A program made the position numbers and the translations under genes. Source: Candidatus Melainabacteria bacterium 17Bon1m (lineage in GTDB: Bacteria; Cyanobacteriota; Vampirovibrionia; Obscuribacterales; Obscuribacteraceae). Taken from it: 64,000 bases of DNA. A model generated the notes under the pieces. That model was not told where the DNA came from. It saw only the letters and a list, made by a program, of their open reading frames with translations, and did not search any database. Below, piece after piece: positions 44,734-50,520 of the stretch (its first letter is position 1; every line of letters begins with the position of its first letter). The DNA is taken from the NCBI GenBank assembly GCA_032128875.1, contig JAVLKG010000001.1, positions 224,001-288,000 on the forward strand, in the 5' to 3' direction.

Positions 44734-44837
44734 ATCCCCTCCAGAGGTTGTCGTCGCCTAATCATACTATTTGGTAAGTATTAAGGGGTATTGCATCCGC
44801 AAATCGAACTTCACTTTGCGAAGGAATTTAAAAAAGA

Positions 44838-45070
44838 CTATCTGTCTTTTGAAAGTGAGATTCTGATTCGCAGGTCTAGAGCACTTGCGGTTCTTACAAG
44901 CATCGGAAGTGAGTGTCCTTCATAGTCAGAATCCTCTAGTCGACTTATCACTGACTGGGTCGTACCTGTCAGGTCTGCAAGTCCTTTCTGACTTAATCCT
45001 GCTTCTTTTCGCGCCTCGTAAATCATCACTGCTATTTCAGAACTGAGGCGCTCATTTGATTTAGTGGTTG
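44838..45070 (-). pseudogene. 5'-truncated XRE/HigA-like HTH gene
   Basis: ERLSSEIAVMIYEARKEAGLSQKGLADLTGTTQSVISRLEDSDYEGHSL; the frame continues upstream of GTG 45029 to a stop, without an RBS. Confidence 0.5.
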
Positions 45071-45143
45071 TTTAGGTCTAGCAATGAGAGGTGGTCGGCC
45101 AGCCTTTCTGGTTGCCTGCAAACATTCGAGAGAGGTCGTGAAA

Positions 45144-45228
45144 TGGCGGAGATGGCATGGACTCGAACCTGCAACGCTTTCGCGCGCCTGTTTTCAAGAC
45201 AGGCTCCTTTCCAATTCGGATCATCTCC
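45144..45228 (-). tRNA. tRNA-Ser(TGA)
   Basis: CCTGT-CT TGA AA-ACAGG arm, long variable arm, encoded CCA. Confidence 0.85.
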
Positions 45229-45233
45229 GTAAT

Positions 45234-45306
45234 TGCCAACGACTGGAATCGAACCAGTTTCGTGCCGTCTTCAGCGGCTCGTGTTGACCACAATCACCAC
45301 ATTGGC
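45234..45306 (-). tRNA. tRNA-Phe(GAA)
   Basis: Acceptor GCCAATG/CGTTGGC, loop CT GAA GA, TTCGATT; no CCA. Confidence 0.75.
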
Positions 45307-45307
45307 A

Positions 45308-45381
45308 TGGCGCGTCGACCTCGATTCGAACGAGGACCAGCAACTTTGGAGGTTGCGCGGCTACCGTTACCTCATCGACGC
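45308..45381 (-). tRNA. tRNA-Trp(CCA)
   Basis: GCAAC-CT CCA AA-GTTGC; TTCGAAT; CCA end. Confidence 0.85.
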
Positions 45382-45382
45382 A

Positions 45383-45458
45383 TGGAGCACACGAGCCGAT
45401 TTGCACGGCTGCGTAGCGGGGTTGCAATCCGCCGGCTTGCTGTCTTGCCTACGTGTGC
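45383..45458 (-). tRNA. tRNA-Cys(GCA), atypical T-loop
   Basis: Loop TT GCA AC; U73 + CCA; T-loop TGCAAAT. Confidence 0.75.
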
Positions 45459-45459
45459 A

Positions 45460-45535
45460 TGGAGCCGTCAGCAGGAATTGAACCCGCAACCAATCGCTTA
45501 CAAGGCGATTGCTCTACCAATTGAGCTATAACGGC
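45460..45535 (-). tRNA. tRNA-Thr(TGT)
   Basis: ATCGC-CT TGT AA-GCGAT; canonical D-arm; CCA end. Confidence 0.9.
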
Positions 45536-45588
45536 GTGTGTTGAACGTCAGATTGTTGAAACCTCGTGAGTTGGTTAGATAAAACAAT

Positions 45589-45660
45589 TGGAGGCAGTAG
45601 GAATCGAACCTACCTGGAGCTGGTTAAAAGCCAGATACATAGCCAATCTGCCATGCCTCC
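45589..45660 (-). tRNA. tRNA-Lys(TTT)
   Basis: Acceptor GGAGGCA/TGCCTCC; loop CT TTT AA; TTCGATT; no CCA. Confidence 0.8.
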
Positions 45661-45683
45661 GCAAAAGTTTCTGAAAAAAAATT

Positions 45684-45778
45684 GGGCGTGTGCAACACGC
45701 CCCCACGCTCTGGAAGAGCCGGCTGGAAGCCAGCGCTCCGGCCGATTTAGAAGCGGGCGAGCCGCCGGCGCTCCCAGG
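45684..45778. repeat. REP-like palindromes inside the tRNA array
   Basis: GGGCGTGTGCAACACGCCCCCACGCT; GGCGAGCCGCCGGCGCTCCCAG (reverse complement of a copy near 31911). Confidence 0.65.
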
Positions 45779-45783
45779 AAAAA

Positions 45784-45856
45784 AGCCCCTGCCAGGATTT
45801 GAACCTGGACCCTTCTGGTTCGTAGCCAGATGCTCAATCCGTTGAGCTACAGGGAC
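45784..45856 (-). tRNA. tRNA-Arg(ACG)
   Basis: TCTGG-CT ACG AA-CCAGA; TTCAAAT; no CCA. Confidence 0.85.
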
Positions 45857-45917
45857 AATGCCGGACCTAAAGGCTCAGCTTTGGTCCGGGTTTCTCGGCG
45901 GCCGCCGTAGAAATGAT

Positions 45918-45988
45918 AGCCCACCATCGGATTCGAACCGATATCTCCGCCGTGGCGCGACGGGGTTCTGCCATTGAACCAGGTAGGC
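45918..45988 (-). tRNA. tRNA-Gly(GCC), atypical (C33)
   Basis: CCGTC-GC GCC AC-GGCGG; U73; TTCGAAT. Confidence 0.7.
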
Positions 45989-45991
45989 GAA

Positions 45992-46062
45992 TTGCCACAG
46001 CAGGAGTCGCACCTACACCACTCGCTTATCAGGCGAGCGCTCTACTGTTGAGCTATGCAGCA
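45992..46062 (-). tRNA. tRNA-Ile(GAT), atypical T- and D-loops
   Basis: CTCGC-CT GAT AA-GCGAG; T-loop TGCGACT; D-loop lacks GG. Confidence 0.7.
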
Positions 46063-46066
46063 CTAA

Positions 46067-46138
46067 TGCCCGATGAAGGATTTGAACCTTCAACCCTCTC
46101 CTTGTAATGGAGTAGCTCTACCGTTGAGCTAACCGGGC
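46067..46138 (-). tRNA. tRNA-Val(TAC)
   Basis: Acceptor GCCCGGT/ATCGGGC; loop AT TAC AA; TTCAAAT. Confidence 0.8.
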
Positions 46139-46141
46139 GAA

Positions 46142-46214
46142 TGGAGACTATCGGAATCGAACCGATGACCTTCTCGTTGCAGGCGAGTTGCTCTGCCGTC
46201 TGAGCTTAGTCCCC
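46142..46214 (-). tRNA. tRNA-Ala(TGC), atypical (C33)
   Basis: G3:U70 identity pair (GGGGACT/AGTCTCC); loop CC TGC AA. Confidence 0.8.
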
Positions 46215-46521
46215 ATGTTTTCTCGATTTTCAGGGTGCGATGTTTCCGAAGTGAACAGATGAAAGTGCGAAGTGTTCAAAATGAGTATGGGTGAGTTCAA
46301 AAGTTATGCGACTAAATTTTTTCTGACACCTCCCTGCGCTAGAGCGAGCTAGGACAATGGCACCACTAATGGTGACACTGCAGATTAAGAAGCGAATTTA
46401 TTCACACGACGTTGATCGGTCAGCAAAGCTGCGATTGCGCGCTAACGCAAATCAATCAGCAAATGCTTGATCGAAGAATGTCTAGTTATCGGGATTCCCG
46501 TGAATAGAGAGCCTTAAAGAC

Positions 46522-46548
46522 AAAAATGCCTGGGCTCTTTACCCAGGC
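46522..46548 (-). terminator. Intrinsic terminator (attenuator) upstream of the tRNA array
   Basis: GCCTGGG-TAAAGAG-CCCAGGC-ATTTTT on the minus strand. Confidence 0.75.
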
Positions 46549-46574
46549 TCTGCGGAGTTAGATACCAATCAATC

Positions 46575-46691
46575 TCATCGCATTACTGGGATTTTCACGC
46601 GCACGTTTGCCGTGCCGCCGCAAAACACTGGACGTCCGGAGTCGGCGCGCCATGTGCGTTTGGTGGTTGAGCAAATAATTGATTTATTCAT
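46575..46691 (-). CDS. 38-aa leader peptide MNKSIICSTTKRTWRADSGRPVFCGGTANVRVKIPVMR
   Basis: TAAGGTG RBS 6 nt before ATG; lies between the promoter and the terminator; too short for the ORF track. Confidence 0.65.
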   Translation of the reverse strand: MNKSIICSTTKRTWRADSGRPVFCGGTANVRVKIPVMR

Positions 46692-46759
46692 AGTCTGCAC
46701 CTTAGTGTCCTTTATGATCATTAGTGATCATAAAGTCGGCCCGAAGACCGACTAAATTC

Positions 46760-46788
46760 AACATACCACAACACCCCTGACGCCGCAA
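46760..46788 (-). promoter_or_regulatory. Sigma70-type promoter of the leader/tRNA array
   Basis: TTGCGG-17 nt-TATGTT with extended TG; a cUUCGg hairpin follows immediately (46734-46753). Confidence 0.65.
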
Positions 46789-46791
46789 GAA

Positions 46792-47868
46792 CTATTTTTG
46801 TTTCGTTCTTTCTAATAATGCGTTGTAGTCATCTTGCCACTCAGGCTTCTGAGTGTTTTGCTGTTTCGCTCGCTTATCTACCGCAATATTGTAGATTTTC
46901 AACGCTTCCACATCATCGCGTTTCAGTTCACAAAAGCGCGCCATGGTAATGAACATTCGCTCGCTCTCGTTTGTGCGTTTCAACAATTCGTTTTTGATTG
47001 CGTTAAACGCATCGTATTTCCTTTGTTTTAAAAGGGCGTAAGCCAGCGCAATTTGAACGTCAGTCAATCCGGCATTTTCGTCCGTTAGTTCTTTGATGTG
47101 TGCACTCGATTTTTGCGCATAATCTTCCGCCAGCGAATAGTGCTTAGAACTGTTTGCAATGAGAGCCAATCTGTAGAGCCCAAGCGCAGCACGCACATCA
47201 CCTACGGGCATTTGTTGTGCTTCGCTCGCCAGCTTGTCTAGCGACTTTCCGAATTCTTCTAATGTGTCAACGCTTACATTGGAAGATGGATCTGCTTCGG
47301 GATTTTCTTCGTTAAGAGAGGTGAGCGGATCGCCATACTTCAGTTGCTCGCCATCCGCGATTGACTTGAATTCATCAAGTTGTTTCAGCGCCGCATCGAC
47401 GCCGTCACAGTGTTTCTTGAGCTGCGCAGTGTAATCTTTTGGCACCGTGTTGTTTATAAGCGATTCAATAATCGCTTTGGTATCAGTACTCGTTCCACCT
47501 GCGGTGGCATTTTGATTCTCAATTTCCTTCTCGAAAAATTGCTTGAGCATTTGCGGGCTTCTCGCGTACAATTCCGCGGAGTTTTTCGCGTAGTTCGGAT
47601 CCATAATCAATTCGAGTTGCATTCTGATCAACATCTCTCGAATGATTCGCGCACTCTCATCCGGATGTCCCGCCTTCAACTGCGCAAGAGCATTTTGAGC
47701 TTGCATGGCAGGTGTTGCCGGCACAGATAATGTTGGTCCAGGCGTCGTTTGTTCCGGTGTCGTTTGTTCAGGTGTCGCCGGCTCAGCCGCTGTCGCAATC
47801 GATAAAGCAAACGAGCAATAGAGCAATCCGCAAATCAGAGCCGTCAGTGTGCGTTGTTTGAACCGCAT
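46792..47868 (-). CDS. Secreted helical/TPR-like hypothetical protein
   Basis: GGAG RBS; signal peptide; TPEQT x2 linker. Confidence 0.65.
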   Translation of the reverse strand: MRFKQRTLTALICGLLYCSFALSIATAAEPATPEQTTPEQTTPGPTLSVPATPAMQAQNALAQLKAGHPDESARIIREMLIRMQLELIMDPNYAKNSAELYARSPQMLKQFFEKEIENQNATAGGTSTDTKAIIESLINNTVPKDYTAQLKKHCDGVDAALKQLDEFKSIADGEQLKYGDPLTSLNEENPEADPSSNVSVDTLEEFGKSLDKLASEAQQMPVGDVRAALGLYRLALIANSSKHYSLAEDYAQKSSAHIKELTDENAGLTDVQIALAYALLKQRKYDAFNAIKNELLKRTNESERMFITMARFCELKRDDVEALKIYNIAVDKRAKQQNTQKPEWQDDYNALLERTKQK

Positions 47869-49685: not shown

Positions 49686-49881
49686 CCTGATTCGTCCGTT
49701 TGAGTTGCCAACCTTATACCAGATTTGGACTTTCCCTACCTTACCGTTGGGCTGAAGCGCACCCCTGTGGGCGTATGGAGCGTCACATCTTGTAGTGTTT
49801 GCCCGGCGGAGGCGCTCTAAAAAGTAAAGGGATCGCGGCTGGCTTTCTAATTTATGATTGTGCTTTTCAGGCGGTAATCCC

Positions 49882-50520
49882 ATGATCGTACAAAAGCAAG
49901 AGATTGATTTAGCGACCTGGGCGCGCGCCCCGCACTTTGAATTCTTTCGAGAATTTCTTGAACCCTGCTACGGCATTACTTTTCGCGTCGATTGCACCGA
50001 TGGTTACACGTATGCAAAGGCGAAAGGGTATTCATTCTTTCAATATTGTCTGTTCTGGACGCTGACGGCTGCGCAGAGCATTGAAGCGTTTAAGTTGCGC
50101 ATTGAAGAAGACAGGCTTGTTCGCTACGAGCGCCTTGATGCCGGCTCAGCCATTGATCGTCCAGATGGTACGTTTGGATTTGGGCATTTTTTATATGATG
50201 CAAATGGGACCAAGTTTTTGACAGAAGCGAAGGAGGAGGTCGCGCGTGTTCGCAATACAACTAAATTGCTGCGACCTGAGGTCAATAACATAATTCGTTA
50301 TTCGGCGTTGCCGTGGATCGATTTTACGTCTATTACTCATGCGCAGAAGTTCGCTCAAGCTGACAGCTGTCCGCGCATTACATTCGGCAAAATGACTGAG
50401 GTCAACGGATGCAGGAGCATGCCCATTGCTGTTCATGTCCACCATGCGCTTGTTGATGGTCGGGATGTGGGACTGTTTGTGGAAAAGCTCGAACAGTTCA
50501 AAATTAGCGACTATGAATAA
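49882..50520 (+). CDS. cat: Chloramphenicol acetyltransferase (CatA family)
   Basis: WARAPHFEFF, SALPWIDFTS, PRITFGK, VHHALVDG. Confidence 0.85.
   Translation: MIVQKQEIDLATWARAPHFEFFREFLEPCYGITFRVDCTDGYTYAKAKGYSFFQYCLFWTLTAAQSIEAFKLRIEEDRLVRYERLDAGSAIDRPDGTFGFGHFLYDANGTKFLTEAKEEVARVRNTTKLLRPEVNNIIRYSALPWIDFTSITHAQKFAQADSCPRITFGKMTEVNGCRSMPIAVHVHHALVDGRDVGLFVEKLEQFKISDYE

Follow-up and report, generated by a model that had tools for sequence, protein, structure and literature searches.

A probably translated open reading frame upstream of a divergent tRNA array in an Obscuribacteraceae genome has the layout of a putative leader-peptide attenuator

Organization of the tRNA array and its surroundings

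The window, a stretch of 64,000 nucleotides from the genome of Candidatus Melainabacteria bacterium 17Bon1m, carries an array of 11 tRNA genes on its minus strand (46215..45147) in the order Ala(UGC), Val, Ile, Gly, Arg(ACG), Lys, Thr, Cys, Trp, Phe and Ser(UGA). The array begins 360 nt 3' of an ORF of 38 codons plus a stop codon, read by translation of the same strand (46691..46575, minus) and hereafter called the leader. The tRNA genes were assigned with ARAGORN and Rfam: by default, ARAGORN reported 10 tRNAs, with the first misread as Cys and Ser missed, and Rfam added the Ser gene; at a threshold of 88%, ARAGORN recovered all 11, and Ala(UGC) was confirmed by its anticodon loop.

The genome (7.55 Mb in 35 contigs) holds 68 tRNA genes according to ARAGORN. 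Each of the 10 array anticodons compared, Ser being left out, has one dispersed genomic copy that is 56-74% identical to the array copy, so the array is a divergent spare set. In the accessible part of the source, a long tRNA array is one with 20 or more densely packed tRNA genes (PMC4758250). The leader-bearing arrays of this genome, with 11 and 6 genes, stay below that number, and arrays of 21-26 tRNA genes are found in a related genus.

Between the leader's terminator, described below, and the array lies a poorly conserved spacer, 150-350 nt long among the related loci, that ends in a 20-nt motif. In the alignment of those loci the motif is conserved directly 5' of the first tRNA gene, tRNA-Ala (46220..46239, minus strand). 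The sole other close copy in the genome has two mismatches and is located at G000:C1:953812, approximately 35 nt before the tmRNA gene; the motif may be a separate promoter, operator or processing signal shared by two translation-rescue RNAs.

Several other features of the region were recorded. A hairpin followed by a T-run within the array (45702..45684, minus strand) was considered as an internal attenuator and rejected, as it belongs to a genome-wide repeat of about 200 copies. The repeat is a 20-nt G+C-rich palindrome that occurs inside both leader-bearing arrays of the genome, often in tandem clusters genome-wide, and assembly contigs of public sequencing runs are interrupted only at this repeat. 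The array is followed immediately, in the same orientation, by a helix-turn-helix gene of the HTH_3 family encoding 63 residues (44838-45029, minus). A gene of the chloramphenicol acetyltransferase family (Pfam CAT, E=1.6e-22) lies on the plus strand at 49858-50520, 3.6 kb from the array. The sequencing runs that cover the region, three labelled RNA and one unlabelled, gave a flat depth and contigs of 8-19 kb running across genes and spacers; the runs labelled RNA look like DNA in their behavior.

Translation signals and evolution of the leader ORF

A Shine-Dalgarno-like site lies 6 nt 5' of the ATG of the leader (46698..46703, minus strand), recognized by its sequence and by its conservation in the alignment, where both the site and the ATG are kept across homologues. 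For comparisons among loci we used an objective rule, by which the leader starts at the first in-frame start codon with a Shine-Dalgarno-like site 5-16 nt upstream. This rule gives a leader in each locus, and the leaders so chosen have a GGAG-type site 5-16 nt 5' of the start.

When class I homologues are compared across genera, all 26 keep the leader frame open, and each of the other frames contains stops in 22 of them. A second frame that is partly open over the leader within the genus was rejected as coding on account of those stops; within a genus, high nucleotide conservation alone can keep reading frames open. The indels among the leader homologues are multiples of three. Their codon differences, 359 synonymous and 1,427 non-synonymous, indicate that the peptide evolves near neutrality, and the third codon position is only mildly more variable than the other two (1,098 differences vs. 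811 and 928). Because of this near-neutral change, a leader is a likelier product than a working protein. Searches of the peptide against Pfam and of the leader against Rfam returned no family. The conserved start signals, the open frame and the indels in threes are taken as evidence that the ORF is translated.

Elements of the putative leader transcript

Upstream of the leader we located an extended -10-like element, consisting of TG, one base and a TATGTT-type hexamer (46760..46768, minus strand), which forms a conserved block in the 14-locus alignment. An equivalent GTGGTA..AT element was found 5' of every class I leader inspected, those of other genera included, and it may act as the promoter of the leader transcript. 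A crude sigma-70 scan requiring a -35 box found nothing in 44800-47100, the spacer between leader and array included.

The 5' region of the putative transcript has a stem-loop (46734..46753, minus strand), supported by alignment and consensus fold, whose sequence changes preserve pairing. This hairpin was considered as the terminator of the upstream gene and rejected; it was assigned to the leader because it is conserved in loci where the upstream genes differ. Only this genome and its closest relative have, between this hairpin and the ribosome-binding site, a perfect inverted repeat with two 9-nt arms separated by 4 nt (46712-46733, minus strand), which may be an operator or a recent insertion.

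Downstream, an intrinsic terminator was predicted at 46515..46548 (minus strand), with a G+C-rich stem of 8 pairs that closes a loop of 5 nt and is followed by a T-run. It is paired in 112 of 112 cells over 14 loci, is present in all 25 aligned loci, and has no other copy in the genome at up to 4 mismatches, save one match with 4 mismatches. A copy of its 3' arm, CCCAG, lies inside the ORF 13 nt before the stop codon (46586..46590, minus strand) and is proposed as an antiterminator strand that would pair with the 5' arm of the terminator. In all 25 class I leaders, CCCAG or CCCAGG lies 7-13 nt 5' of the stop codon and is read in two codon phases, as Pro-Val, Pro-Gly or Pro-Arg; it is therefore preserved as RNA and not as peptide. 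Its pairing with the terminator 5' arm, which would exclude the terminator stem itself, is invariant in 14 of 14 genus-level loci.

A small hairpin across the stop codon is enclosed by the candidate antiterminator (46551..46582, minus strand, from the alignment). The proposed antiterminator as a whole, that is, the CCCAG helix and two inner helices at the stop, is paired in 94.2% of 224 cells, vs. 25-51% in slid controls. For the inner helices taken by themselves, pairing holds in 91% of cells, and each of the two has one pair that changes on both sides. Covariation over the antiterminator is thin, with 2 pairs that change on both sides and a score reached by 13 of 500 shuffles.

We folded the window leader as RNA ending just before the terminator 3' arm, with ribosome footprints masked. 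In the free RNA, the antiterminator helix had a predicted probability of 0.92; this fell to 0 when a ribosome covered the stop codon, and was again 0.92 when the ribosome was stalled in the middle of the ORF. Among 12 representatives this probability reached at least 0.14 in 7 and was about zero in 5, the helix being of 5-6 pairs and closing approximately 45 nt. The terminator was favored at equilibrium in all 12 under all masks, so a switch between the two structures would need to act kinetically. The leader showed no clear 1:2 anti-antiterminator helix.

Peptide and codon composition of the leader

The reading of this DNA from its sequence alone had pointed to the composition of the leader peptide. 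According to that reading, all 11 amino acids served by the array occur in the peptide and make up 31 of its 38 residues, and our recount of the translation agrees (K3, S3, I3, C2, T4, R5, W1, A2, G3, V4 and F1); the other 7 residues are M2, N2, D1 and P2, with Leu, Glu, Gln, His and Tyr missing as it had stated. Its account of the codons is also exact: Arg is encoded by CGC three times and by CGT and CGA once each, Lys by AAA in 3 of 3 cases, Val by GTG three times and GTA once, and Ile by ATT twice and ATC once. The codon-anticodon match that it drew from these counts stood in part. Taken by single amino acids it is weak, with probabilities under genome codon usage that all codons match of 0.14 for Arg, 0.023 for Val, 0.65 for Ile and 0.15 for Lys; pooled, 19 of the 24 informative codons can be decoded by the array anticodons, vs. 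13.5 expected.

Compared with proteome frequencies, 31 of 37 residues fall within the array set where 21.8 were expected (binomial P=0.0011). As controls we took real small ORFs of 33-48 codons from the six frames of the same genome (n=30,455). In these ORFs the mean fraction of amino acids belonging to the array of the window is already 0.65, and 606 of them (2.0%) equal or exceed the match of the leader. The first reading had itself cautioned that the sample is small and chance possible. Taken alone, the amino-acid match of the window leader appears mildly unusual; the composition claim gains its weight because the leaders of other arrays also track array content.

Distribution of the leader in the family

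The leader DNA was matched in 15 of 61 related genomes, covering 11 of the 12 of the same genus and three other genera. The stretch conserved among these matches corresponds to the ORF and the terminator hairpin, and the same tRNA array lies downstream in 15 of 15 loci. Among 104 genomes of the family, a covariance model of the ORF end and terminator found a single match in each of 29, belonging to 10 of 37 genera. In a 151-genome sample of the class, the model gave two weak matches outside the family, neither near tRNA genes. These two and a third weak match in genome G126 were rejected as leaders; with no tRNA genes nearby, they are considered ordinary terminators. A search with the sequence of the array revealed arrays of differing content in further genera of the family, of which 20 were taken for leader comparison.

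Some unusual elements were found among the arrays. In locus L037, from a related genus, a 120-nt piece matching positions 1063-1185 of bacterial 23S rRNA (64.4 bits) is placed between array tRNA genes (L037:3272-3392, minus strand). At fixed places the arrays also have tRNA-like genes whose anticodon loop is 6 or 8 nt long or whose wobble position is A (L037:2116 and 2755, L038:1182, L039:2271, L051:2414 and L034:3323, in array-strand coordinates, and G000:C3:1007950), and they were excluded from the amino-acid sets. The last of these positions belongs to a third tRNA cluster, G000:C3:1007950-1010321 (L020), which holds an ORF assigned by Pfam, at E=1e-14, to the Acb2/Tad1 hairpin family, known from phage counter-defense; because of this ORF, the cluster is probably prophage-derived.

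The second array and the class II leaders

The second leader-bearing array of the genome, with genes for Asp, His, a Pro-like tRNA, Tyr, Leu and Gln, lies with its leader region at G000:C4:285779-286804 (loci L019 and L021). It is preceded by a conserved sigma-70-like promoter, a 5' hairpin and a leader of 43 codons. This leader has GTG as its start codon, with a Shine-Dalgarno site before it, and is kept in 9 of 12 genomes of the genus. Its peptide takes 25 of 42 residues from the six amino acids of its own array (binomial P=2.7e-5), a fit reached by 23 of the 30,455 random small ORFs, and these residues are largely the amino acids missing from the window leader. When the amino-acid labels of the two arrays were shuffled, the observed fit was reached in about 1 of 10,000 trials (P of about 1e-4). 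The composition bias is present in all homologues, with 27-32 of 35-40 residues in the first type and 21-26 of 40-42 in the second.

Leaders of this second type (class II) are without a terminator. In this genome, the first 10 or so codons of the C4 leader pair with the ribosome-binding site and start of a second, overlapping ORF (L021:1771-1993 and homologous loci L022-L030), in a layout like that of erm. The overlapping ORF is hydrophobic, of about 74 codons, and has a strong coding signature (third-position difference of 0.49 vs. 0.23), and its Pfam search gave no family. In 10 of 10 loci it enters the tRNA-Asp gene without a stop codon, and its mRNA would be a non-stop message once the tRNAs are processed. 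In another genus, the class II leader ends 7-19 nt before tRNA-Pro. By analogy, class II leaders might work through erm-like translational attenuation, perhaps coupled to Rho protection.

Leader composition across arrays of differing content

The first reading had held that it would be refuted if homologous leaders failed to correlate with array content; the correlation was found. We paired one leader per array type from related genera, with array sets of 6-18 amino acids, and permuted the pairs. The true pairing of eight leaders with eight arrays was equalled or beaten by 8 of 40,320 permutations. Because the leaders fall into two broad classes, the permutation was also restricted within class, using 10 units that included one genus found afterwards by the covariance model; the true pairing was then reached by 15 of 17,280 permutations with a z statistic and by 2 of 17,280 with presence or absence. 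These P values overstate the independence of the loci, because the loci are related.

The array sets were obtained with ARAGORN at the lowered threshold, with two mis-set anticodon kinds re-read by eye and one Pro-like tRNA taken from Rfam alone. The pairing tests leave out same-type homologues (L002-L013, L022-L030, L033, L036, L038-L041, L045, L048 and L051), loci with a cut leader or partial array (L035, L042/L043, L054 and L055), and L046, for which no leader was identified.

Pooled over the eight leaders, 211 residues belong to the amino-acid sets of the respective arrays vs. 157.5 expected, and the residue ratio is higher when the array has the cognate tRNA for 16 of the 20 amino acids. 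In class II leaders, codons for Cys, Tyr and Trp each appear only where the respective tRNA is in the array, and in class I leaders Glu appears only where tRNA-Glu is present. The pooled match at the codon level, 65 of 103 vs. 51.8 expected (P=0.004), is modest, and two leaders drive it.

The tracking has its exceptions. For Ser, Asn, Phe and Val, presence of the cognate tRNA does not raise the ratio, and Ser and Asn are often used by leaders of arrays that have no such tRNA; locus L044 has an Asn-rich leader and no tRNA-Asn in its array. Arrays of 16-18 amino acids are uninformative for tracking, as in L034 (z=-1.2), and the held-out genus (L052) is neutral (z=0.73). With these results, the earlier proposal that the leader samples the tRNAs of its array draws support from the tracking of composition, and its sensing role is a probable one as far as it can be read from the DNA.

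Discussion

An ORF with a ribosome-binding site lies upstream of the array on the same strand, a terminator is placed between the two, and the leader is enriched in the content of the array; as read from sequence, this layout is that of a leader-peptide transcription attenuator. The explanation we favor, with a probability of roughly 60%, is that the ORF encodes the leader peptide of a ribosome-dependent attenuator governing spare tRNA genes, in which stalling for want of the tRNAs of the array permits read-through. RNA polymerase would start from the conserved extended -10 promoter some 75 nt 5' of the ATG, and a ribosome would read the 38-codon leader. On reaching the stop codon, the ribosome would mask CCCAG, 13 nt upstream, such that CCUGGG is left to its 3' partner; the terminator would then form, and transcription would stop before the array. 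When a tRNA for any of codons 2-29 is scarce or uncharged, the ribosome would stall earlier and leave CCCAG unmasked, and its pairing with the emerging CCUGGG would pre-empt the terminator. RNA polymerase would then continue into the 11 tRNA genes, and the supply of array tRNAs would close a negative feedback loop. Since the leader is composed mostly of amino acids served by the array, the switch would report a shortage of the very tRNAs that it controls. Transcription start, read-through into the array and dependence on stalling are thus the predicted steps of the scheme, and its natural trigger may be amino-acid starvation or toxin damage to tRNAs, both being possible.

We consider it unlikely that the ORF belongs to an attenuator for translation stress in general, one that would respond to any slowing of ribosomes by antibiotics or global starvation and for which the composition match would be secondary or weak. 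General stalling would be sensed by any ORF in front of such a switch, leaders that belong to the largest arrays draw on almost every amino acid and so cannot be specific, and the match at the codon level is modest. A chloramphenicol acetyltransferase family gene is also found 3.6 kb away, and the accessible part of a study on a cyanobacterial trn array describes its induction by translation inhibitors (PMC8421152). However, a response to general stress does not predict that the leaders of small arrays avoid amino acids absent from the array, nor that two arrays of one genome have complementary leaders, and it is at odds with the presence/absence tracking within classes (2 of 17,280).

Somewhat less probable still is an independent gene, for a small protein or an sRNA, with its own terminator, the array being served by a promoter next to its first tRNA and the synteny reflecting a co-inherited mobile block. 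The near-neutral peptide, with no family, fits a leader better than a functional protein, and the copy of the terminator arm, CCCAG(G), in two codon phases points to an RNA switch. A separate gene would also leave the composition tracking unexplained, and the crude scan found no sigma-70-type promoter in the spacer. The terminator, however, is strong and wins at equilibrium, the spacer is long and variable, the 20-nt motif stands before tRNA-Ala and also before the tmRNA gene, and read-through into the array is a step that we infer, all of which speak for two separate units.

It is very improbable that the composition match is due to chance and that the ORF, without being translated, merely accompanies a conserved structured RNA. 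The window leader alone does reach just P=0.02 against random small ORFs, and within the genus the high nucleotide conservation is enough to hold frames open, a second one partly so. Across genera, however, all 26 homologues have an open leader frame, each of the other frames is open in only 4 of 26, the Shine-Dalgarno site and start codon are conserved, and the second array replicates the bias independently (P=2.7e-5), in agreement with the permutation tests.

If the attenuator governing spare tRNA genes is real, it would extend classical attenuation from the supply of amino acids to the decoding machinery itself, and it would account for the retention of silent, redundant tRNA arrays. Furthermore, the co-variation of leader and array across genera would be a rare case in which the codon content of a regulatory element can be read from the genes that it controls. 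A broader proposal, to which we give even odds, is that spare tRNA sets carry a codon-matched test gene that evolves with the gain and loss of tRNAs, such that the array would be switched on only when those tRNAs run short, for example after cleavage by a tRNA-targeting toxin, in a self-tuning supply circuit of bacterial chromosomes.

Comparison with known systems

Leader-peptide attenuators control the trp, his, leu and phe operons, and the thr and ilv leaders are multivalent. In classical trp attenuation the terminator is thermodynamically favored and antitermination is kinetic. The locus described here shares with these biosynthesis operons a short translated ORF followed by an intrinsic terminator before the regulated genes, a strand near or in the ORF that would compete for a terminator arm, and regulatory codons that name the sensed resource. 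It differs from them in that the product is tRNA and not enzymes, in that up to 11 or more amino acids are spread over the ORF instead of a run of one to three, and in that the candidate antiterminator is a copy of the terminator arm, of 5-6 bp, within the last codons.

T-box riboswitches bind one uncharged tRNA directly and control genes for aminoacyl-tRNA synthetases or amino acids. As in the T-box, the status of tRNA would be sensed and a terminator or antiterminator selected, but here translation would be needed. An Rfam scan of 44800-47000 with E up to 1, in which a T-box was sought, gave just tRNAs and chance matches. Antibiotic-sensing leader ORFs, as in the translational attenuation of erm genes, bmrCD and topAI, sense the drug through the nascent peptide. 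Our proposed mechanism resembles theirs in that a stall in a short upstream ORF would remodel the downstream RNA, and the pairing of the C4 leader with the ribosome-binding site of the next ORF is an erm-like layout; unlike theirs, the peptide sequence is poorly conserved and its composition follows the array.

Little has been described of the regulation of individual bacterial tRNA genes, and we know of only one studied array of this kind, that of Anabaena, with a repressor acting at the promoter. A literature search, with subscription journals outside its scope, found no leader-peptide control of tRNA genes or arrays. According to the accessible part of PMC8421152, the trn operon of Anabaena sp. 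PCC 7120 is silent by default, is induced when translation is impaired, and is controlled at the promoter level via promoter repeats; that part of the text uses none of the words leader, terminator and attenuat-. As far as that source goes, the Anabaena operon and the array of the window are both supernumerary, divergent tRNA sets of the wider cyanobacterial lineage, but the former is a long array, whereas the arrays of this genome have 11 and 6 genes with a leader ORF in front. Altogether, by analogy, the locus resembles classical leader-peptide attenuation and would differ from it in the genes regulated, which encode tRNAs, and in the breadth of the sensor.
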